Origin: a virus
Lineage: Duplodnaviria; Heunggongvirae; Uroviricota; Caudoviricetes
Length of the DNA stretch: 25,754 nucleotides
Virus record (IMG/VR): IMGVR_UViG_2778261588_000001
Direction: 5' to 3' (one strand)
The position numbers and the translations under genes were made by a program. Positions 3,019 through 21,004 of this stretch are shown piece after piece (the stretch's first letter is position 1; every line of letters starts with the position of its first letter). The notes below the pieces were generated by a model. The model was not told the DNA's origin. It saw nothing but the letters and a program-made list of their open reading frames with translations, and made no database searches.

Positions 3019-3600
3019 TTACCCTATAGGTGCTACTGGCCATTCAATATCCGGTGCAGTTGTTGTATTAACACGGTTCAGCAACACCCGATACTTCTTC
3101 CAGGCTTCCAGCAACGAGATTTCTTCCTCCGTTGCAATTTCCAGATCTGCAGCATCCTGAAGCGGCGCAATATGCTCACTGGCTACCTGCATCAGGTTGT
3201 TTTTTGTTTCTTCCGCCTCCCGGATCCGGAACAGTTTTTCTGCTTCCGTATCCTTCACCCAGGCTGTGCCGTTCCACTTCTGATATTCCCCTTCCGGCGA
3301 TAACCAGGTGACATTTTCCGGTAACGAGCCAAGTTCAGAAATAAATAACGCGTCGCCGGAAGCCACGTCATAGACGGTTTTTCCCCGATGATCTTCAACG
3401 AGATGCCACGATGCCTCATCACTGTTGAAAACAGCCACAAAGCCAGCCGGAATATCTGGCGGTGCAATATCGGTACTGTTTGCTGGCAGACCTGTATGAG
3501 GCGGAATATATGCGTCACCTTCACCAATAAATTCATTAGTTCCGGCCAGCAGATTATAAATTTTTATGGTCCGTGGTTGTTCACTCATTCTGAATGCCAT
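3019..3600 (-). CDS. tfa: Tail fibre assembly protein (Tfa family, 193 aa)
   Basis: N-terminus [51 protein letters not shown] is characteristic of lambdoid Tfa proteins; start overlaps the stop of the upstream stf remnant (TAATG). Confidence 0.85.
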
Positions 3601-5455: not shown

Positions 5456-5572
5456 TTTTCCTCACATATGTCATATAGTAAAGGATTATATATACCGTTG
5501 TTTTGGACGCTCAAACAGCGAATCAGATCAAATAAAACGCACATTTGTTAACATTTACACAAAGTCTGCGTG

Positions 5573-5593
5573 GGATATTCTGAAAGAATATCC
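5573..5593. promoter_or_regulatory. Perfect 21-bp palindrome GGATATTCT-gaa-AGAATATCC about 120 bp upstream of the 142-aa lipoprotein gene; candidate operator
   Basis: Read directly from the sequence: 9-bp perfect inverted arms with a 3-bp spacer in an AT-rich promoter-like region. Confidence 0.4.
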
Positions 5594-5988
5594 ATAATGT
5601 GGAGAGAATCTATTGAAGTGCATGGTGCCGGGTGCCTCCCGGTGAATTCAGTACCAGCACCTGAATCCGCGATTATCCCATATACCTACTCGCTGATTGC
5701 CCCTCCGCACAGGGGGATTCACCATGCCAGTTTCTTTTAACAAACTCCCCGCAAACCAGAGAACAGTCAACCGCCTGAATTGTGAAGTATTTAAAAATTT
5801 CTCCCGCTAACTGATACCCGGCTAACAGTCTGGCGTTTTCTTTTTCAGCAACGGGAAAGCAACAACCACCACACCCGCCACCAGCACACCGTCAGCCAGC
5901 ACTGACATTATCCGGCTGCTGCAATGCCATTCACAAAAACAGTAAGCAATCACTTTTTACCGTAACAGGTGATAATCCAGATATGTAT

Positions 5989-6452: not shown

Positions 6453-6529
6453 TGGCGCGCTGTACTGGATTCGAACCAGTAACCGATTGCTTAGAAGGCA
6501 ATTGCTCTGTCCGGCTGAGCTAACAACGC
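6453..6529 (-). tRNA. tRNA-Arg (anticodon UCU), phage argN/argO-like
   Basis: 77-nt cloverleaf on the minus strand: acceptor GCGTTGT/ACAGCGC, T-arm ACTGG-TTCGAAT-CCAGT, anticodon loop CU-UCU-AA, encoded 3' CCA. Confidence 0.85.
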
Positions 6530-6634
6530 TGAATACCGATAATGGACCGCTATCGGGGACCCGCCCCCCCCCCGCACCAACAACCCTGTTATCGTGTCGT
6601 CTGCTCTTCCTGATAAGCTCATGGCGGTTTGTGA

Positions 6635-6710
6635 TGGTGGCCCTTGCTGGATTTGAACCAGCGACCTGGCGATTATGAGTCGCTCGCTCTCACCACTGAG
6701 CTAAAGGGCC
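6635..6710 (-). tRNA. tRNA with CAU anticodon, ileX/ileZ-like (tRNA-Ile2; elongator Met not excluded)
   Basis: 76-nt cloverleaf: acceptor GGCCCTT/AAGGGCC, T-arm GCTGG-TTCAAAT-CCAGC, anticodon loop CU-CAU-AA, discriminator A, encoded CCA; differs at only a few positions from E. coli ileX as recalled. Confidence 0.85.
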
Positions 6711-9555: not shown

Positions 9556-9711
9556 TTACTCCTCAGGTTCGTAAACTGTGAAGACAGCGACCTCCGTCTG
9601 GCCGGTTCGGATTCGTACCTCGCAGAGGTCTTTCCTCGTTACCAGTGCCGTCACTATGACGGTTAAACAGATGACGATCAGGGCGATTAACATCGCCTTT
9701 TGCTGCTTCAT
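9556..9711 (-). CDS. hokD: Hok-family type I toxin (51 aa), HokD/RelF-like
   Basis: MKQQKAMLIALIVICLTVIVTALVTRKDLCEVRIRTGQTEVAVFTVYEPEE is near-identical to E. coli HokD as recalled. An in-frame 19-codon upstream extension exists but the internal ATG gives the canonical length. Confidence 0.85.
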   Translation of the reverse strand: MKQQKAMLIALIVICLTVIVTALVTRKDLCEVRIRTGQTEVAVFTVYEPEE

Positions 9712-10431
9712 AGCCTGCTTCTCCTTGCCTTTCGGCACGTAAGAGGCTAACCTAGATTTGCCGTTCATAGATTGAGCCTCAGATTAATGTTAAGCGTCTT
9801 GCAGGACGCGTAATGTTAACTGGGGCTTTTCTCTATCTGCCTTTGGTGTTCATGCCTGAGGCAGATAGCCTCAAGCACCCGCAGCAATTCTACTTAACTC
9901 CCGTCACCTCGCCAATATAAAATCAATCAGAAAGGCGATCCATAAGAACAACAGCAAGACAATAAATTGCCATTACAGCCGCAATAGCTAGCGCACATTT
10001 GAGAACCAGCACGACAACCTCCTGTATTGGACGTACACCAGTTCTGATAAATATGAGGCTGTCTCATCATTGATTCAATATAACTATTGGGTATAGTTTC
10101 TGTGATTTTGTTCTGTAGAAATGGAACACAACAACCAGTCACCACCAGCACTTCTTTAAATACGCCAAGTCCGACGCAAGCTAACCTTCTAGTCCGCTTT
10201 GAGCGAGGAGCGGACCAAACCCGGCCAACTGACTCTTAAAGGGGCCGCAGGAATTTTTCGTCTGAACTTTCGAAGCTCCTCTCCCTGAAGACAGAAAACT
10301 TCTGTGTGCTGTGGGAATATTGAATCTTTGCATTAGATATAAATAATTTTATCCCGCCTGAAGTTTACATTATTTTATTTATCTGTTTTTCTAAATCAGA
10401 CTGCACTCCTTACTTAAATCAGGAGCCAGTC

Positions 10432-11631
10432 ATGCCATTTGTTATTTATGTGTTTACTATCAGTGCCTTTGCGCTCGGACTCGCGGAATTTGTCCCCATT
10501 GGGCTGACAGACGTTATGGCTCAGGGGTTGTGTGTGGGTGTGGAGCAGACCGGGGCAGCGGTTACAACCTATGCACTGGGGGCAACGTTCGCGGCACCCG
10601 TACTGTCTGCGCTGACAGCAAGCTGGAGCCGGAAAAATGTAATGCTTACAACTGCCGTTGTGTTTACTGCCGGTAGTCTGGCGGCCGCGTTTGCAGCCAC
10701 ATTACCTCAGCTCCTGTTAGCGCGGTTCATTGCTGGTCTGGGACACGGCCTGTTTCTGGCTGCGGCATCCAGTACCGCAGCTCGTCTTGCTGGACCGGGT
10801 AAAGCAGGCAGAGCGGTGGCTGTGGTATTTGGTGGCTTTACTCTGGCGATGGCAATCGGCGTACCGCTGAGTACATGGTTGGGGGGGGTGGTCTCATGGC
10901 GTCCAGTTCTCGGCGCTATTGCCGCTTTTGGCGCGTTCGGATTCCTTGGACTGTTGTTCGGTATGAAAGATCCCGTACGCAGCGTGCCCGGTGAACATAG
11001 TGACTCAGCAATGCAGAATATCGGCATGCTGTTTAACCGTAAGTTGCTGGCCGGCGCGCTGGTTACGGTGCTGGCGTATGCAGGCTCGTTTACGGCTTAC
11101 ACCTTTATCGCACCTATTCTGACGCAGGTGACAGGGGTTACCGGAGCAACGGTGAGTCTGTTTATGCTGGTTTACGGTATTACAGCTGCGGTAGGTAATA
11201 TTCTTGGTGGGAAACTTACCGACAGCATGGGGGTTAATCGTGCCAATATACTCATCATTAGCGGCATTGTTGTTGTCGTGCTTGGTATGTGGCTGCTGTC
11301 ATCCTCACCGGTGAGCATGGGCATTCTGGTTGCGCTGCTGGGTATGGTGACATTTGCCGCAGTGCCGGCACTGCAGGCCCGTCTGATTGGTGTCGCTGAG
11401 CAACATGCTCCTCATGCGCATGGTGTTGCTGCCGGCCTGAATATTGCGGGCTTCAACTCAGGTATAGCGCTGGGATCAGTACTGGGCAGCATTACTATAA
11501 GCCACGCCGGTATCGTGTATACCGGTATCAGCGGTGCGATTGTTTCTCTGCTCGGCCTGCTGTTGCTGCTTGCACAAATCCGTCGCAGCCACAGTCGTAA
11601 ATTTCAACAGGTTAAAATCGTAGGCCAGTAA
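10432..11631 (+). CDS. MFS transporter (399 aa, 12-TM type), cargo
   Basis: Long hydrophobic ORF with Gly/Ala-rich helices; SD AGGAG upstream; visibly higher GC than flanking phage DNA. Confidence 0.85.
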   Translation: MPFVIYVFTISAFALGLAEFVPIGLTDVMAQGLCVGVEQTGAAVTTYALGATFAAPVLSALTASWSRKNVMLTTAVVFTAGSLAAAFAATLPQLLLARFIAGLGHGLFLAAASSTAARLAGPGKAGRAVAVVFGGFTLAMAIGVPLSTWLGGVVSWRPVLGAIAAFGAFGFLGLLFGMKDPVRSVPGEHSDSAMQNIGMLFNRKLLAGALVTVLAYAGSFTAYTFIAPILTQVTGVTGATVSLFMLVYGITAAVGNILGGKLTDSMGVNRANILIISGIVVVVLGMWLLSSSPVSMGILVALLGMVTFAAVPALQARLIGVAEQHAPHAHGVAAGLNIAGFNSGIALGSVLGSITISHAGIVYTGISGAIVSLLGLLLLLAQIRRSHSRKFQQVKIVGQ

Positions 11632-11642
11632 AGGGAGGTTAT

Positions 11643-12335
11643 ATGCTTACCCGTGAAAATATGCTTAATGGCACATTTGTCAGGGTGCATGAAGCGCTGC
11701 TCCCGGCGAATATGCTCTGGGACGCTGAAAAAATACGCGCATCAATGAACTCTACTCTGGAGGAGCGCCCGACGGGTGCTCCTTTCTGGATATTTGCCTA
11801 CGGGTCATTGATGTGGAATCCCGTGCTGGCAATTGAAGAAATGCAACGGGCCCGTCTGAAAGGATGGCAGCGCAGTTTCTGCATTCGTTTGATATCCGGA
11901 CGAGCGACTCCTGATGTCCCCGGCAGGATGTTATCGCTCGACGAAGGTGGAATTACCGAAGGTATTGCGTTCAGACTGCCGGAATCGACTCTTATTAATG
12001 AGCTGGAAATTGTCTGGACGCGCGAGATGATAACCGGTCTTTACCGTCCGGTCTGGGCAGACGTTTCGCTAGGAAACGGTGAGGAAATTCAGGCGCTGGC
12101 TTTCGTATCAGACAGACTGCATCCGCATTATGAACAGGACAATCTTACAGCGACCGTAGCGTTGAGCATCGCATCTGCCCGTGGAGACATTGGCACGAAT
12201 GCAGATTATGTATGGAAACTGCAGGCCACTCTGGGTGCGTTGGGAATACGGGATGATTACGTGAGTGAACTGGCCCTTGCTCTGCATGAGGCTCCCTGTA
12301 ACGATAAACTTCATCAGCGAGGCGCTTCACTATGA
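11643..12335 (+). CDS. ChaC-family gamma-glutamylcyclotransferase-like protein (230 aa)
   Basis: Motif FWIFAYGSLMWNP and downstream GRMLSLDEGG...LWTREMITG pattern typical of ChaC; SD AAGGGAGG upstream. Confidence 0.8.
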   Translation: MLTRENMLNGTFVRVHEALLPANMLWDAEKIRASMNSTLEERPTGAPFWIFAYGSLMWNPVLAIEEMQRARLKGWQRSFCIRLISGRATPDVPGRMLSLDEGGITEGIAFRLPESTLINELEIVWTREMITGLYRPVWADVSLGNGEEIQALAFVSDRLHPHYEQDNLTATVALSIASARGDIGTNADYVWKLQATLGALGIRDDYVSELALALHEAPCNDKLHQRGASL

Positions 12336-13213
12336 GCCATCTGAGCCATCTGCGAACGTTTCTTGAGGCCTATCGCTCTGGCTCCTTTTCAAAGGCGGCA
12401 GAACTACTGGGCATCACTCAGCCCGCGGCGTCACAGCATATCCAGTCTCTTGAGACTCTGGTTGGTAAGCGTCTGTTTATCAGGCAGGCCAGAGGCGTGA
12501 CGGCAACCGAAGCTGCGGATGAGCTTGCCCGCTCAGTTTCACCCTTCATTGATGGTCTGGAAGAAAAGCTGTCCTCTTTCCGGTCAGGCTCTGTACACGG
12601 GGGAACAATTAATCTGGCAGGACCGCCAGATTTTATTCATTCCCGGCTTGGGACAGTAATGGCTCCACTAATGAAGGAGGGGTATCGCCTACGCTTTCAT
12701 ACCGGCAATAAGCAACGTATTTATTCCCTTTTGCATGACGGGAGCGCCGATCTCGCTGTTACCGCATCTATGCCTGATGACCGTCTGTACGGCTATGCAC
12801 ATCTACTGACTGAACGCATGCTCCTTGTTCATGCTCCCGCCATGTCAGAGATCATCGGATCAGAACCTGGTGCTGAAACGCTTGCCTCATTACCGCTGAT
12901 TGCTTATGACGAAGAGTTGCCACTGATTAGAGCGCTCTGGGCCTCCATGTTTCAGAGAGCCCCTGAGATGCAGGCTACATTCACCATTCCGGATTTACGT
13001 ATTATCCGCGACTTGGTCTGTGACGGCCACGGGTGGACAGTGCTGCCGGATTATCACTGTGACAATGACCTGAAAAGTGGTCGCCTGATTTCAGTGACAC
13101 CTGCAGACCTCGCTCCGACTAATCATCTTTATCTGGTCTGGAACAAAAGGACGGCTAATAACAGCCGAACCGCCTATGTTCGGGATTACATTCTTAAAAC
13201 GTTTCCGCGTTGA
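12332..13213 (+). CDS. LysR-family transcriptional regulator (293 aa)
   Basis: N-terminal HTH LRTFLEAYRSGSFSKAAELLGITQPAASQHIQSLE; start overlaps the ChaC-like stop. Confidence 0.85.
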   Translation: MSHLSHLRTFLEAYRSGSFSKAAELLGITQPAASQHIQSLETLVGKRLFIRQARGVTATEAADELARSVSPFIDGLEEKLSSFRSGSVHGGTINLAGPPDFIHSRLGTVMAPLMKEGYRLRFHTGNKQRIYSLLHDGSADLAVTASMPDDRLYGYAHLLTERMLLVHAPAMSEIIGSEPGAETLASLPLIAYDEELPLIRALWASMFQRAPEMQATFTIPDLRIIRDLVCDGHGWTVLPDYHCDNDLKSGRLISVTPADLAPTNHLYLVWNKRTANNSRTAYVRDYILKTFPR

Positions 13214-13257
13214 TGTTTGAAACGGATGATTGGCGATGCGTATCATAAGTTACGTAT

Positions 13258-13281
13258 GTCCGCTTCTGGCACAAAGCAGAC
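13258..13281. repeat. Hairpin repeat copy A: GTCCGCTT-ctggcaca-AAGCAGAC
   Basis: Read directly; shares a 16-nt core (15/16 identical) with copy B at 16931..16954; lies between the convergent LysR and membrane-protein genes. Confidence 0.45.
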
Positions 13282-13343
13282 GCCCACTCTCACGCGAATG
13301 CTTTGCCCTTGACTTGCCAACAACCGTATCGCTTGCTCCGCAA

Positions 13344-14636
13344 CTATGGTTTTTTATTAGAACCTTCGCCACTAAATAAATTATAATAAATTGATTTTAT
13401 TAGATATCTGTCAGAATCTATATGGTCAGCACGAGTAGCATGCTCTAATGTTTCAAATGCTAGGGTTTGTGCGGCTTCAGCAAAAATTCCAGGCCAACCC
13501 TTACTCAGCATCGACAGTCCTTTAAGTACCCTTATCTGAATTTCCCTCATACTGGCACCATCGCGCGCAACAGGTGAGAAAAAGTCTTCAAGTAGATCGT
13601 TATTCTGAAGTGGTGCAACATGTACAGAAGGATATTTCACTTCTATTTCATCAGATTTATTCTGCGCGTAAGCGGAAAGTATACGTACACCTCTGCCAAT
13701 GACATCAATGGCGGTTCCAGGATCGTTCACTGCGGGGGAAAGGGCTCGGCAGGCTATTTCGGCCATGACGCTAAGACAAAATCGGGGGTCCTGAGCAAAT
13801 GAACGTACATCCGAGACAATAATCGTCTCAAGTAAATCGGTGCTGATTGATGACTCCTGGCCCTGACTCAGGTACAAAACTGGCGTGGACGGATGTATGA
13901 AACTGCCCGGCTGCGCCACGAGGTATACATGACGGGGATCATTGGTCAGCAGCTTGCTGAGTTTCACCATATCAACATATTCAACATAGCCAATCTTTTT
14001 CGGATAAACTGCAACCGTTCCTTTCGGCTGTTCATTGTTCTCAAGCCAAGGATATCCGCCGAGACAGGGATTTCTTGCTCTCGCAATAAATGTTTCGATG
14101 GCCGCCTGTTCTACTTTTGCCGTTGTCTCACCAACCCTCCCCAGAGAGGTCAAATGCTGTATCCAGCGAAGCAATGTGATGAGGATTAAGGCAATGACAA
14201 CCAGTGTTACAATGAATAAAATGACTCTCCCCCTTTCTCCATAAGCTCCCATATTGAGGGCAATAATCCCTACCAGACTGAAGAGAAAAGAACCGATGAA
14301 GGTGGCCAGTACATTTTGTGTGGTGACGTCTTCAACAACTAAACGAGTAGCTCTGGGAGTCACATTAGTAGTGGCTGAACCGTAGGCTGTGACCATGATG
14401 CTCAGCGAAAATGTGGTCACTGCCAGCATACTCGATGCCAGTATGTTCAGAATGTTATCGACTGCTTCCGCACCAACCTTCACGGAAACCGACTCAGGTA
14501 TCATTGATTTAAAAAGAATTGATAAAAGGGCCGTTATTATTGCGACAATTGCGAATAACGTTGCCCTGAACCATAGTTTTTTAAATGTCTGCTTCAGCAT
14601 CCATTTCCAGCGTGAAATCATTCTGCATTCCCTCAT
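13344..14636 (-). CDS. Predicted membrane protein (430 aa), DUF2254-like
   Basis: N-terminal transmembrane segments followed by a soluble C-terminal domain; family assignment from memory and uncertain. Confidence 0.65.
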   Translation of the reverse strand: MRECRMISRWKWMLKQTFKKLWFRATLFAIVAIITALLSILFKSMIPESVSVKVGAEAVDNILNILASSMLAVTTFSLSIMVTAYGSATTNVTPRATRLVVEDVTTQNVLATFIGSFLFSLVGIIALNMGAYGERGRVILFIVTLVVIALILITLLRWIQHLTSLGRVGETTAKVEQAAIETFIARARNPCLGGYPWLENNEQPKGTVAVYPKKIGYVEYVDMVKLSKLLTNDPRHVYLVAQPGSFIHPSTPVLYLSQGQESSISTDLLETIIVSDVRSFAQDPRFCLSVMAEIACRALSPAVNDPGTAIDVIGRGVRILSAYAQNKSDEIEVKYPSVHVAPLQNNDLLEDFFSPVARDGASMREIQIRVLKGLSMLSKGWPGIFAEAAQTLAFETLEHATRADHIDSDRYLIKSIYYNLFSGEGSNKKP

Positions 14637-14684
14637 ATTGCAGCCGGGATAAATAAATGCCGCCTCTGTGGCGGCATGTTGCTG

Positions 14685-16688
14685 TTAACGAACCAGATGC
14701 AGGAAGTGCAGGTGTTTTTCGTACTGGTCCAGTATGTCATTAATCAGCTGTTCCTGATTCCAGCCCATTACATCATAATTTTGGCCGCCCTCTTTGAGAT
14801 AGACTTCAGCGCGATAATATCGATGTTGTTCACTCTGCTGCTCATCATTATCCAGCGCAGCGAGCGCGAAGGTCGGTGAGTTATACCCGCGAAGCCTCAC
14901 TTCATATATATAATTCAGCTCGTTGCCCAAATCGACTTCAAGGCGAATACGATCCTCGGCGGCGTCACTGATGTGGCTTATCGTTCCCTGCTTGTTAAGT
15001 TCCTCCTGAACCAGCGTCATGGCGGGTTGGATAATGTCGTCCATAAAACGTTTCACAAGAGAGCGCTTCGGCAAATACGCGATATTGCGTAACCTTCTCT
15101 GCCAGGGAATTGGGTTACGTGCAGCCGTAGGAGCAATAGTCGCCATGCTAAGGCTTTCACGCTTGGTCAAATCCCGACGCAGGGCTTTTAACAGTCCGTA
15201 TATGGATATTAATAAGATAACTGAGAAGGGCAATGCACTCGCTATCGTTACGGTTTGCAACGCACTCAGCCCCCCTGCGATCAGCAGGGCAATAGCAACA
15301 ACGCCCATGAGCGATGCCCAGAAAATTCGCTGCCAGACGGGCGTGTTTGCCACCCCACCTGATGCCAGAGTATCCACAACCATTGCCCCCGAATCAGCAG
15401 ACGTTACAAAGAAGACGATGACCATCGCCATTGCAATGAATGACAGCACGGAAGAGAACGGGAAATGCTCCAGGAAATTAAACAGGGCAAGCGCAACATC
15501 CTGCTGAACGGTATTGGCGAGGTCAGTGGCGCCCTGGTTCATGATGAGATAGATGGCGCTGTTTCCAAACACCGTCATCCACATGAGCGTAAAGCCGGCG
15601 GGAACAAACAACACGCCAGTCACGAACTCACGAATTGTCCTGCCGCGGGAAACGCGTGCAATGAACATACCTACAAACGGCGACCATGAAAGCCACCATC
15701 CCCAGTATAATAATGTCCAGCCCCCCAGCCAGTTGCTCGACTTGGGTTCATACGCGTAAAGGTTGAACGTTTTACTCACCAGTTCCGACAGATAACCACC
15801 CGTATTTTCCACAAATGACTTCAGCAGAAGCACAGTGGGACCCAGGCACAAGACCAGCGCCAGGAGCAACACCGCCAGGCCCAGATTAAGCTCAGACAGG
15901 ATGCGTATTCCCTTGTCCAGGCCGGACACCACCGAAATCGTCGCTAACCCCGTGATGACCACGATCAAAATGACCTGTACCGTTTCATTGATGGGCACGC
16001 CGAAAAGATGGTTCAAACCGGCATTCACCTGCAATACACCGTAACCCAGTGATGTTGCAACGCCAAAGACAGTGCCTATCACGGCGAAGATATCAACCGC
16101 GTGGCCTATAGGCCCGTAAATGCGATCGCCGATAATGGGATAGAGCGCAGAACGCAGCGTTAAAGGCAGACCGTGACGGTAACTGAAAAAGGCCAGAATC
16201 AGCGCCACGATGGCATAAATTGCCCATGCGTGCAGACCCCAGTGGAAGAACGTCAGGCGCATGGCTTCCTTCGCTGCCGCAACGGTCTCTGGAGTGCCGA
16301 CAGGTGGCGAAAGATAATGCATCACAGGTTCGGCAACGCCAAAGAACATCAGGCCGATCCCCATCCCTGCCGAAAAAAGCATCGCGAACCAGGAGTGGTA
16401 GCTGAAATCAGGCTGCGCATGGTCTGGGCCCAGCTTTATATCACCGTAACGTGAGAGTCCAAGGAACGTGACGCTCAGTAAAATCAGGGCCACAGCAAGT
16501 ATGTAGAACCAGCTGGCATTCGTGAAGATTTGTTGCTGAAGTAGTTTAAAATTTTTGTCGGCGACATCCGGGAATACGGCGGCAAAGGCGACAAGAAGGA
16601 AAATTAGCAAAGCAGATGTAAAGAATACCGCTTTGTTAATCTGGCTTGTAGACTTCTTTGGGGTTGTATCATTTTCACTCATAATCAT
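14685..16688 (-). CDS. BCCT-family transporter, BetT-like (667 aa)
   Basis: Length and N-terminal pattern (...GDIKLGPDHAQPDFSYHSWFAMLFSAGMGIGLMFFGVAEPVMHY) parallel E. coli BetT as recalled; long C-terminal cytoplasmic tail. Confidence 0.85.
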   Translation of the reverse strand: MIMSENDTTPKKSTSQINKAVFFTSALLIFLLVAFAAVFPDVADKNFKLLQQQIFTNASWFYILAVALILLSVTFLGLSRYGDIKLGPDHAQPDFSYHSWFAMLFSAGMGIGLMFFGVAEPVMHYLSPPVGTPETVAAAKEAMRLTFFHWGLHAWAIYAIVALILAFFSYRHGLPLTLRSALYPIIGDRIYGPIGHAVDIFAVIGTVFGVATSLGYGVLQVNAGLNHLFGVPINETVQVILIVVITGLATISVVSGLDKGIRILSELNLGLAVLLLALVLCLGPTVLLLKSFVENTGGYLSELVSKTFNLYAYEPKSSNWLGGWTLLYWGWWLSWSPFVGMFIARVSRGRTIREFVTGVLFVPAGFTLMWMTVFGNSAIYLIMNQGATDLANTVQQDVALALFNFLEHFPFSSVLSFIAMAMVIVFFVTSADSGAMVVDTLASGGVANTPVWQRIFWASLMGVVAIALLIAGGLSALQTVTIASALPFSVILLISIYGLLKALRRDLTKRESLSMATIAPTAARNPIPWQRRLRNIAYLPKRSLVKRFMDDIIQPAMTLVQEELNKQGTISHISDAAEDRIRLEVDLGNELNYIYEVRLRGYNSPTFALAALDNDEQQSEQHRYYRAEVYLKEGGQNYDVMGWNQEQLINDILDQYEKHLHFLHLVR

Positions 16689-17022: not shown

Positions 17023-17445
17023 TCACTTCAATAAATACCGAACATCCCCCTGATAAAACGACAATATGCGCTGCATAACTTCGCTCTTCCGGCACTCGCG
17101 ACAGATTATGTTTAGGCGACTGTCGTAGCGACGTATTTCTCCGTCAGGTAATGACCAGATAAGGTCCGGATCAACCACAACCGGTTTCTTCAGCTTTGCC
17201 CTCGATAATTTTTTGCGGGCATTTTGCCAGTCTTTACGAGCCTGTTCAGACGGGAATAACCCGTAGCCAGAATTGTATACATCGCCACTGGCAACCAGCT
17301 CTCTGGCCAGAACGCTCATCAGATATCTTGTTGCCCCAGTTTTAGCTTCCAGTTGTCGTAACGTCTCGCGCCCACTCTGGCGTACGAGTTCAAGAACCTG
17401 CCCTTTAATTTTTTCCCGCTCTTCTTGTGTAAAAACTTTTGCCAC
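17023..17445 (-). CDS. Hypothetical phage early protein (140 aa)
   Basis: ORF immediately downstream of the O-like gene in the early-right operon; basic, possibly DNA-binding; no homology recognised. Confidence 0.5.
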   Translation of the reverse strand: MAKVFTQEEREKIKGQVLELVRQSGRETLRQLEAKTGATRYLMSVLARELVASGDVYNSGYGLFPSEQARKDWQNARKKLSRAKLKKPVVVDPDLIWSLPDGEIRRYDSRLNIICRECRKSEVMQRILSFYQGDVRYLLK

Positions 17446-17485: not shown

Positions 17486-18562
17486 TTACCCCCTGAAGCC
17501 CGGCGGAATTTCGTTATCCGGTTCAGAAATATGATTCACACAACGCTGGTTGTTCGTGCCGCTTACCGGGAGCAACCAGGGGTTCTCAAAATTCCGGTCC
17601 GGTCCAAAAAACGTCGTCGCTCGCTGAACAAATTCCGTTCCCGTTTTCCCGGTAGCCGCCAAGTATCTTGCGTAACGCCTCACGCCATCCAGCATGGCCT
17701 CTGGTGGCACCCCCTCGCGTAATCTGGCCTTCCAGGCACTGAAAGCGGATTTCTTCGGGTTTGCCCCAGCACGCAACGGGTACTCCCGCCAGACCTGTTC
17801 GAACACATCCGGATAATCCACTCGTCCCACAGACTGCCCGGTGTTTTCCGGGACTACCCGATCGGCTTCCCGCTGAATGGCGGAATCGGCTTCAGGCTGC
17901 TGCAGTTGGTGTGATTGCTCCGCCCTTGCGGTCATCACCTGCTGCACAGCGCCCGAATCGGCTTTCAGCGCATACGCTGAATCGGCTTCCGGTGTCGTGC
18001 CTGCTGGCTGACCAAGATTGACGGTCTGAACATCCCCTGCCTGGTTCGTGGCGTTTTTTACGCCATGGACCATAGTGTTTTGATCTTCTTGATCTGTATC
18101 TTTATCTGTATCTTTATCTGTCGTGACTCGTCGTGACATGTGCGTGACATTTCGTGACGCGCCGTGACAATCGCCATTTTGTTCCCGCTTTCTTTCCCTC
18201 TCTCGCTGCGCCCTCTTGCGCTCTGCAGGAGATTTTGCGGTTTGCGAAATATTGCCGTTGTCCTCTTTAAGCACCTGGCGTTTTTCCCATCCAGTGATTA
18301 AATCACCATCAAGTACCCGCCCCTGCATCGTCTGCAAAATTGAATCAATTACCTCTTCTGTCACGTCGAGCGCACTTGCCAAATCTTCTGTCGTGACATC
18401 AATGTGACCTCGCGTGACATTTCGTGACGCGCTCACCAGGAGGTGGATATACACTGCCATCACTGTTGCAATTGGCTGCCCTGACACCCTGGCAATTGTT
18501 CGCCACTTAGGGTCATTTGGCATGTCATGCCATAATCTGAGCCAGGCGTTAGCCATACTCAC
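17486..18562 (-). CDS. Phage replication initiation protein, O-like / YdaU-like (358 aa), with internal repeats
   Basis: Position after the cro/YdaT-like genes; N-terminus MSMANAWLRLWHDMPNDPKWRTIARVSGQPIATVMAVY resembles prophage replication proteins; acidic TDKDTDKDTD repeat; contains iteron arrays. Confidence 0.65.
   Translation of the reverse strand: MSMANAWLRLWHDMPNDPKWRTIARVSGQPIATVMAVYIHLLVSASRNVTRGHIDVTTEDLASALDVTEEVIDSILQTMQGRVLDGDLITGWEKRQVLKEDNGNISQTAKSPAERKRAQRERERKREQNGDCHGASRNVTHMSRRVTTDKDTDKDTDQEDQNTMVHGVKNATNQAGDVQTVNLGQPAGTTPEADSAYALKADSGAVQQVMTARAEQSHQLQQPEADSAIQREADRVVPENTGQSVGRVDYPDVFEQVWREYPLRAGANPKKSAFSAWKARLREGVPPEAMLDGVRRYARYLAATGKTGTEFVQRATTFFGPDRNFENPWLLPVSGTNNQRCVNHISEPDNEIPPGFRG
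18121..18168. repeat. Iteron array 1: five TCGTGAC-type repeats at 10-11 bp spacing inside the O-like gene, next to 12-nt tandem ATCTGTATCTTT repeats
   Basis: CGTGAC starts at 18122, 18132, 18143, 18153 and 18163, read directly from the sequence. Confidence 0.55.
18391..18428. repeat. Iteron array 2: four (C/T)GTGAC repeats at 10-11 bp spacing inside the O-like gene
   Basis: Motif starts at 18392, 18403, 18413 and 18423; the 20-mer GCGTGACATTTCGTGACGCG is shared with array 1; an inverted copy GTCACG lies at 18360..18365. Confidence 0.5.
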
Positions 18563-20946: not shown

Positions 20947-21004
20947 TTTCTGGTGACGTTTGGCGGTATCAGTTTTACTCCGTGACTGCTCTGCCGCCCT
21001 TTTT
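20947..21004 (+). ncRNA. dicF: DicF small RNA (antisense inhibitor of ftsZ and other targets)
   Basis: TTTCTGGTGACGTTTGGCGGTATCAGTTTTACTCCGTGACTGCTCTGCCGCCCTTTTT matches the DicF sequence as recalled, including its 3' terminator; lies just upstream of dicB. Confidence 0.7.

Follow-up and report, generated by a model that had tools for sequence, protein, structure and literature searches.

The window analysed here, a 25,754-nucleotide stretch of DNA filed as IMG/VR virus record IMGVR_UViG_2778261588_000001, is E. coli chromosome with a Qin/DicB-type lambdoid prophage in it, and the replication initiator gene of this prophage contains two arrays of short direct repeats, an AT-rich tract and a GC-rich hairpin inside the coding sequence. 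We consider it probable, from the structure and conservation of these repeats, that they are the prophage's vegetative replication origin, embedded in the gene of its own initiator. An origin at this place had been proposed by a sequence-only reading of the same DNA, several details of which are confirmed or revised below. The features that matter most to the argument are the following, in window coordinates:

17486..18562, minus strand: initiator ("phage replisome organizer", O-analogue) gene, 358 amino acids, or 356 from the RefSeq ATG
18392..18428, minus strand: array 2, four direct cores at 10-11 bp spacing, third unit GTCACA (gene sense), encoding amino acids 45-57
18360..18365, plus strand: single inverted core, 33 nt downstream (gene sense) of array 2, encoding D-V-T
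18122..18168, minus strand: array 1, five direct GTCACG cores at 10-11 bp spacing, encoding amino acids 132-147 in a disordered linker
18083..18121, no strand: AT-rich tract, putative DNA-unwinding element (DUE), a 12-mer tandem repeat, gene sense GATAAAGATACA, in 2.9 copies
18042..18072, no strand: GC-rich inverted repeat with a 13-pair stem and a 5-nt loop, at the distal edge of the AT tract

Repeat arrays, AT-rich tract and hairpin within the gene

The minus strand carries the gene, so array 2 precedes array 1 in gene order, which corrects the strand of the earlier reading. In gene sense the elements follow one another as array 2 (codons 45-57), the inverted core, array 1 (codons 132-147), the AT tract and the 13-pair inverted repeat. 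On the plus strand CGTGAC begins at 18122, 18132, 18143, 18153 and 18163 in array 1, with spacings of 10, 11, 10 and 10, and the array 2 cores begin at 18392, 18403 (TGTGAC), 18413 and 18423; the two arrays lie 229 bp apart. The inverted copy at 18360-18365 is an addition to the earlier reading. Tandem Repeats Finder (TRF) independently delimits a period-10 array at 18120-18169. The sequence-only reading had described five TCGTGAC repeats at 10-11 bp, of which the number and the spacing hold up and the 7-mer unit does not: the leading T is present in three of the five, and the true core is the 6-mer CGTGAC, or GTCACG in gene sense. Each unit of 10-11 bp comprises this 6-bp direct core and an uninformative spacer, with no dyad symmetry within units. 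Four more repeats about 230 bp away had been said to share a 20-mer with the first set, and GCGTGACATTTCGTGACGCG does occur exactly at 18142-18161 and 18412-18431, where it extends to a 21-mer. The accompanying duplication at the protein level is also real, and is seen in SASRNVTRGHIDVTTED (amino acids 44-60) and GASRNVTHMSRRVTTDKD (amino acids 134-151).

The cores do not keep to one reading phase. In gene order their starts fall in codon phases 2, 0, 1 and 0 in array 2 and 1, 2, 0, 2 and 0 in array 1, and over 174 units in 23 loci of relatives the three phases are used 74, 48 and 52 times. The cores are therefore a DNA-level feature, and one repeated peptide cannot be their cause. As a null model we shuffled synonymous codons 5000 times while keeping the protein; the gene holds nine GTCAC, against a shuffle mean of 2.9 and a maximum of 8, and a chain of at least four at 10-11 bp arose in 14 of the 5000 shuffles, which upholds the earlier view of these repeats as DNA elements with helical periodicity. 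A three-unit pattern of fixed spacing was observed twice versus 0.00 expected, and in the 25.7-kb window GTGAC chains of at least four at 10-11 bp fall in only two places, the two arrays. Position 6 of the core, which was not used for selection, is G in 89% of the 174 units, and the 4-5 nt spacers hold 0.1-0.5 bit. Selection acts on the repeat DNA, with the peptide not its target. A scan for promoters and terminators returned a promoter-like match inside array 1 at chance level (3 found vs 3.0 expected).

The AT tract, pyrimidine-rich on the plus strand, directly abuts the last core of array 1. The 12-nt AT-rich tandem repeat reported beside the array is present as described (ATCTGTATCTTT at 18092-18103 and 18104-18115), and TRF assigns it a period of 12 and 2.9 copies with 95% match over 18087-18121. 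Its proposed ease of melting is borne out by its position at the stability minimum of the gene: it is the least stable 36-mer there (dG -38.9 vs a mean of -51.4, standard deviation 3.5), lies at the 98.9th percentile of the window, and has no secondary structure of its own in a DNA fold. Codon choice in the tract is strongly skewed. In the 36 nt after array 1 in 22 loci, Asp is encoded by GAT in 70/72 cases and Lys by AAA in 63/71 (97% and 89%), against 218/468 (47%) and 166/321 (52%) in the rest of the same genes. The tract ranges from 14 to 47% GC in 22 relatives, is near 28% GC in loci of 66-69% GC, and keeps the motif AGATAA where the frame reads LDKIREE or PQIREEE. By these patterns the tract is held AT-rich as DNA, its codons running counter to the bias of the host. 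Near-identical E. coli copies are polymorphic in the number of its repeat units, by +12 or -6 nt. Two GATC (Dam) sites, at 18082 and 18091 and 9 bp apart, lie at its distal edge.

Beyond the tract, the GC-rich inverted repeat folds on the plus strand with a dG of -10.9 kcal/mol (z -4.95, 0/200 shuffles as good) and on the minus strand with -8.7 (z -2.85). Four diverged versions from relatives (L134, L136, L137 and L138), folded one by one, all form hairpins on both strands (z -3.6 to -5.9); some of their substitutions are compensatory, and in L136-L138 the register of the outer stem pairs is shifted. Other lineages have unrelated GC-rich stems at the matching offset, clustered at 47-60 nt, and a stem of at least 6 bp lies within 110 nt after array 1 in 11/22 loci vs 26/126 control windows. 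Array 1, the AT tract and the hairpin together encode amino acids 132-172, between the N-terminal domain (amino acids 1-95) and the C-terminal domain (amino acids 250-320); they lie where the gene encodes a disordered linker, and there is therefore little protein constraint on them.

The initiator, its relatives and the missing helicase loader

RefSeq labels the initiator gene "hypothetical protein". PHROGs places its product in phrog_3729, "replication initiation protein" (E=2e-257), and separate PHROGs families match the N part (amino acids 3-151) and the C part (amino acids 202-358); "phage replisome organizer" is the source-database name of its 90%-identity protein cluster. Upstream of the gene are cro and a cII/YdaT-like gene, and within a replication module of the order cI, cro, cII-like, initiator it takes the place of O. 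The sequence-only reading had placed the repeats inside an O-like gene, and this is right as to location and position in the module; homology to lambda O has to be given up, as the whole protein matches no Pfam family at E<=0.01 and has no Phage_rep_O match. Searched as separate domains, it gives weak Pfam matches only, to Phage_rep_org_N and HTH_Crp_2. The former (PF09681) covers 119 of 121 profile positions in the N-terminal domain with E=0.0086 and 16.5 bits, below the cutoff of 23.3.

An AlphaFold model of the initiator was built on a 15-sequence alignment, and its profile of predicted local distance difference test (pLDDT) values was used for domain limits. The model consists of a helical, winged-helix-like N-terminal DNA-binding domain (amino acids 1-95, pLDDT 82-92), a basic helix (amino acids 112-128), a disordered linker (amino acids 129-247, pLDDT about 27-30) and a helical C-terminal domain (amino acids 250-320), followed by a tail that resembles DnaT. 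The length of the disordered linker keeps confidence in the model as a whole low (pLDDT 54.7). Within the DNA-binding domain, the residues encoded by array 2 are those at the end of helix 3 and in the loop that precedes the helix-turn-helix.

The gene is carried by 2699/5426 complete E. coli genomes, in many of which it is 100% identical, and is found also in Shigella. A 98-99.5% identical gene is present in phages Tritos, Evi and several vB_Eco isolates, which are induced or isolated phages. The sequence-only reading had looked to functional homologues as the place where absence of the repeats would tell against an origin, and the repeats are present in Tritos, Evi, the vB_Eco series and the circular Pseudomonas aeruginosa phage genome CP137943.

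A genome scan with an alignment of homologues yielded 51 loci, about 25 of which have an N-terminal domain at 55-77% identity and show the same two-array layout. Detection extended to more than 580 viral contigs and 1486 proteins. They come from Gamma- and Betaproteobacteria, in Aquitalea, Bordetella, Pseudomonas, Acidovorax, Gilvimarinus, Chromobacterium, Castellaniella and other genera. In these relatives three to six GTCAC(G) lie at gene nt ~129-160 and three to five at nt ~380-450, followed always by (GATAAA/GATACA)n. In 23 loci array 2 lies at nt 129-160 of the gene, as it does in the window, and the AT-rich tract beside the iterons is kept in 22/22 GTCACG loci. The inverted core recurs at the equivalent position in 20/23 relatives with Val encoded by GTG every time, and protein conservation could account for part of this persistence. 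The core itself can change, in both arrays at once: it reads GTAACG in L023, L025, L033, L035, L136 and L137, and CGAACG in L030, L032, L034 and L038. The number of units varies in both arrays, with extra units in both arrays of P0003/P0022 and L004. Between lineages it is the encoded peptides that diverge, with DNA core and spacing kept.

The loci L005-L021 separate the arrays from most of their surroundings. At the protein level these loci have nothing in common with the window except the N-terminal domain: the C-terminal domain and the DUF977, cII-like, cro and repressor genes are all unrelated or absent, and the arrays are still present. Shigella phage 75/02 Stx (L134) has the window's C-terminal domain joined to a different N-terminal domain, and its gene has one GTCAC and no GTCAC arrays. 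It has repeats of its own, AAGGGGCTTC two to three times and inverted GAAGCCCCTT twice, at gene nt 185-215 and 439-466, and the second set is followed by a purine-rich (GAACAG)n tract and then by the same hairpin as in the window. On this comparison the arrays track the N-terminal domain alone, and the two-array layout may be general for this class of initiator genes.

Two leads from the comparison were dropped. Residues A112, K116 and Q119, on one face of the basic helix, segregate with core type and were considered as specificity determinants, but L027 has GTCACG cores yet carries the residues of the GTAACG group at these positions, and the pattern is accordingly a phylogenetic one. The other lead was helical phasing of one array against the other, but differences in their distance between lineages reflect the gain or loss of units and therefore allow no inference on phasing. 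As a separate observation, L037 and L047 (Serratia and Pantoea) have the same N-terminal domain fused to an extra internal domain (peptide ...VGISRNPWAR...) and are without GTCACG arrays; ACTACG/CGTAGT repeats lie at nt ~326-370 and ~650-690 instead.

What follows the initiator differs between the window and its relatives. In the window (17023-17445) and in phage Tritos a DUF977 gene directly follows it, and the window contains no phage helicase loader or helicase gene, in agreement with the loader-less state noted from the bare sequence. A lambda-P family gene (PF06992) comes directly after the initiator in L004, L005, L008 and L017, an IstB/DnaC-like ATPase gene in L019, and a DnaB-like helicase gene in CP137943 (L135). 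An IstB/DnaC-like gene also follows in L136-L138, in phage 75/02 Stx and in all of P0087, P0078 and P0042, distant full-length homologues with the same N- and C-terminal domains. Every relative examined among L004-L020 and L134-L138 thus has a lambda-P family, IstB/DnaC-like or DnaB-like gene. With a loader present in the relatives and absent from the window and Tritos, the loader-less state is therefore derived. It occurs together with an unusual end of the protein:

17489..17560, minus strand: C-terminal DnaT-like tail, amino acids 335-358 (...VNHISEPDNEIPPGFRG), nearly identical to the host DnaT C-terminal tail

The tail matches the NCBIfam DnaT family NF002770 with E=7e-4, below the cutoff, and aligns with the tails of PDB entries 6aep (...INSVSEPDNHIPPGFRG) and 2ru8. 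Mosaic relatives have the full DnaT DNA-binding domain (PF17948) in its place. These likenesses suggest that the tail mimics the host replication-restart adaptor, and we put it forward as a candidate adaptor to the host helicase-loading machinery. The literature searched, a 2026 preprimosome paper included, assigns no partner to the DnaT C-terminal tail, and for this reason a role in helicase recruitment is offered here as a hypothesis.

Proposed mechanism and alternative explanations

In the mechanism that we propose, derepression would be followed by synthesis of the initiator from the cro-side operon, and its N-terminal winged-helix domains are predicted to bind the 6-bp GTCACG cores. Since the cores recur once per helical turn, bound protomers would lie on one face of the DNA and be able to oligomerise, giving a bent nucleoprotein complex. 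Array 2 and the inverted core, 229 bp upstream, would be bound by the same domain, and would either loop to array 1 or titrate and regulate the initiator. The complex would then melt the adjacent AT-rich (GATAAA/GATACA)n tract on supercoiled DNA, with the GC-rich hairpin as the likely far boundary of the melted region, and the C-terminal domain would recruit the replicative helicase, in relatives via a downstream P-type, DnaC-type or DnaB-type partner. As no loader partner is encoded in the window, the element would have to use host DnaB-DnaC, possibly via the DnaT-like tail. Binding, melting, helicase recruitment and the part played by array 2, be it in initiation or in control, are steps that we infer.

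Several points weigh against this interpretation. The searchable literature holds no experimental binding, unwinding or replication data for this family, and no minimal plasmid replicon built on this initiator was found in PLSDB; the matches there are large plasmids with prophage-like DNA, misfiled chromosomes and 50.9-kb circular phage genomes, with no replicon typing given. When the AlphaFold model was compared by fold with the PDB, no known initiator matched significantly, the best matches being the winged-helix proteins MarR, CRP and Rex, all at E>0.5. Co-inheritance of the arrays with the N-terminal domain is partly unavoidable linkage, because the arrays lie physically inside the coding region of that domain and the adjacent linker. 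The loader-less copy in the window could be replication-defective; against a defect, phages with a 98-99.5% identical module show the same loader-less arrangement. Within the species, the density of single-nucleotide polymorphisms in 43 distinct near-identical copies fails to separate the cores (2/54) from the spacers (3/30), the AT tract (1/39), the hairpin (2/31) or the gene overall (~7%), a comparison of low power that is uninformative because there is too little diversity among the copies.

Among the alternatives, the least probable is that the repeats are a by-product of peptide repeats or of a low-complexity linker (SRNVT...VTT, DKDT) and have no function as DNA. The peptide duplication does exist, DK/DT-rich linkers of variable length are common in disordered regions, and the copy number of the tract varies by slippage. 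This account is already largely refuted by the phase and codon-choice data: the cores fall in all three reading phases and outlast the peptides, which differ by lineage, the AGATAA motif persists in other frames, and the preference for GAT and AAA in the tract is far from that elsewhere in the same genes, even at 66-69% GC. It is very unlikely, too, that the repeats bind some other factor in a function apart from replication, as a terminase pac-type site, a target of a host nucleoid protein or other phage regulator, or a recombination or module-boundary sequence. Repeats inside genes are known for pac sites, 75/02-type and window-type genes have their mosaic junction precisely at the AT tract and hairpin, and the hairpin travels with the C-terminal domain, not the N-terminal one. 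However, a conserved origin alone would create a homology patch for recombination, and in L005-L021 the arrays are unchanged beside unrelated regulators, C-terminal domains and DUF977-position genes. Across phyla, moreover, the arrays are found in a replication gene beside a loader gene, and an AT-rich minimum adjoining direct repeats is the classical signature of an origin (PMC5737612).

The other alternatives keep the origin and differ on its extent or its partners. It is possible, although we doubt it, that the origin consists of array 1, the AT tract and the hairpin only, with array 2 being regulatory and dispensable for initiation. Array 2 would then titrate the initiator or act by "handcuffing" (copy or timing), or would block transcription or translation of the initiator gene when the protein is in excess. 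A second, regulatory iteron cluster is common on iteron plasmids. Array 2 has no AT-rich tract beside it and lies 229 bp off, within the coding region of a structured domain; lambda needs only the AT-adjacent iterons in vitro (PMC7466680), and L029, L031 and L036 keep the AT tract without a recognisable array 2. On the other hand, array 2 is conserved as well as array 1 or better, with four units at nt 129-160 in nearly all GTCACG loci, its core changes together with that of array 1, and its upkeep inside a folded domain is costly and implies an important role. None of these three points separates a role in initiation from one in regulation. A bolder variant, which we think unlikely, makes the initiator a self-sufficient helicase recruiter that works via the host restart machinery, the phage loader having been lost. 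After melting of the AT tract, the hairpin would be extruded as a PriA-type primosome-assembly structure, and the tail, copying the last ~20 residues of DnaT, would dock the complex onto a DnaT partner (PriA/PriB or DnaB-DnaC), such that an origin-specific initiator would feed straight into the restart primosome. The site of these events would be set by a looped complex of the two arrays, one of which is coded in a loop of the DNA-binding domain itself.

Neighbouring features and comparison with known systems

Other features of the gene and of the prophage are the following:

17861..17989, minus strand: third repeat, ATCGGCTTY x4 (gene sense RAAGCCGAT, coding E/K-A-D), in the linker-coding region, relation to the origin uncertain
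20948-20999, 9706-9880, 5566-5756, 3059-3257 and 6456-6710: positions of Rfam matches

The four ATCGGCTTY copies (0.51 expected) form two pairs, each with its members 24 bp apart, and the pairs are separated by 96 bp. In the 32-amino-acid deletion variants P0004 and P0016 the lost segment is exactly the stretch between the pairs. A GAAGCCGAT pair at 24-nt spacing is seen in L134 and L138, and the second L134 copy is read in another frame. A natural in-frame deletion of another kind is found in P0019, on an E. coli chromosome: aligned to amino acids ~137-222 of the window's protein, it removes the entire AT tract and the hairpin, together with most of array 1 and some of the linker beyond, and leaves both protein domains intact. 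From its sequence, P0019 looks like an origin-deleted, replication-dead prophage copy.

In a matching genome the gene order is int, xis, exonuclease, dicB, DicF, ydfABC and repressor, then on the cro side cro-like, YdaT/cII-like, "hypothetical protein", DUF977, a cargo block, hokD, DUF968, RusA, Q and tRNAs. The cargo block (10432-16688), inside the prophage between the DUF977 gene and hokD, contains an MFS transporter, a gamma-glutamylcyclotransferase, a LysR regulator, a DUF2254 protein and a 667-amino-acid BCCT (BetT-like) transporter; phage Tritos has a different insert at this position. The Rfam matches, all elsewhere in the prophage, are DicF, the sok antitoxin RNA (beside hokD), STnc100, IS009 and two tRNAs, and no known RNA family in Rfam overlaps 17.4-18.6 kb.

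The map of cores, spacing, unwinding tract and hairpin covers a replication module that is spread over Gamma- and Betaproteobacteria. It can be used for annotating prophage origins, for judging the replication ability of cryptic prophages (P0019 being an example) and for new E. coli replicons, and it offers a case of dual coding in which the protein's own predicted binding sites are written in the loop of its DNA-binding domain. How phages recruit the host helicase without a P or DnaC protein may be approached through the loader-less variant and its DnaT-like tail. We found no published account of this origin type, of a GTCACG iteron or of Qin-type replication, most subscription journals lying outside the search.

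The closest parallel in layout is ori-lambda, where iterons and an AT-rich tract lie in the middle of gene O in lambda and Stx phages (PMC7466680). Both origins would lie mid-gene in the initiator, between an N-terminal DNA-binding and a C-terminal helicase-recruiting part, with iterons directly adjoining the AT-rich tract; both genes lie downstream of cro and cII in an early rightward-type operon, and a lambda-P family gene follows in many of the window's relatives. Yet the window's initiator is not a homologue of lambda O, and the window lacks a P gene. Its cores are 6-bp direct repeats, one per helical turn, in contrast to the ~19-bp imperfect inverted repeats of lambda that are bound by O dimers, and it has a second array 229 bp upstream, in the coding region of the DNA-binding domain. 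In SPP1, oriL lies inside gene 38 and comprises AB-box repeats bound by G38P and an AT-rich DUE, a segment of 356 bp being sufficient in vitro (PMC5737612, PMC6316719). Direct repeats with an adjacent AT-rich putative DUE inside the organizer's own gene, an initiator that is not AAA+ and the name "phage replisome organizer" are points of likeness; the Phage_rep_org_N match of the window's N-terminal domain is weak and sub-threshold (16.5 vs 23.3 bits). Unlike the window, SPP1 has genes for a loader (G39P) and a helicase (G40P), and oriR, the second region that G38P binds, lies kilobases away; its hosts are Firmicutes rather than Proteobacteria, and the window's C-terminal domain with the DnaT-like tail is unrelated.

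Iteron plasmids have helically phased direct repeats, an initiator of their own and an AT-rich DUE, and their iterons are typically about 17-22 bp. The window resembles them in its phased direct repeats beside an AT-rich putative DUE and in its second cluster, and differs in that their Rep proteins belong to other families and that here the proposed origin lies within coding sequence and has 6-bp cores. The Rac prophage of E. coli K-12, with its ydaS-ydaT-ydaU-ydaV-ydaW module, resembles the window in gene order: YdaS/Cro-like, YdaT-like, replication protein and DUF977 gene. In Rac a DnaC-like gene, ydaV, separates the last two, and the window has no DnaC-like gene at this position. Set beside these systems, an intragenic origin in an initiator gene is an expected kind of element, which seems to be undescribed in this family. 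What is unusual is the combination of 6-bp iterons at one-turn spacing, a second array in the coding region of the DNA-binding domain that co-evolves with the first, and a loader-less variant with a DnaT-like tail.

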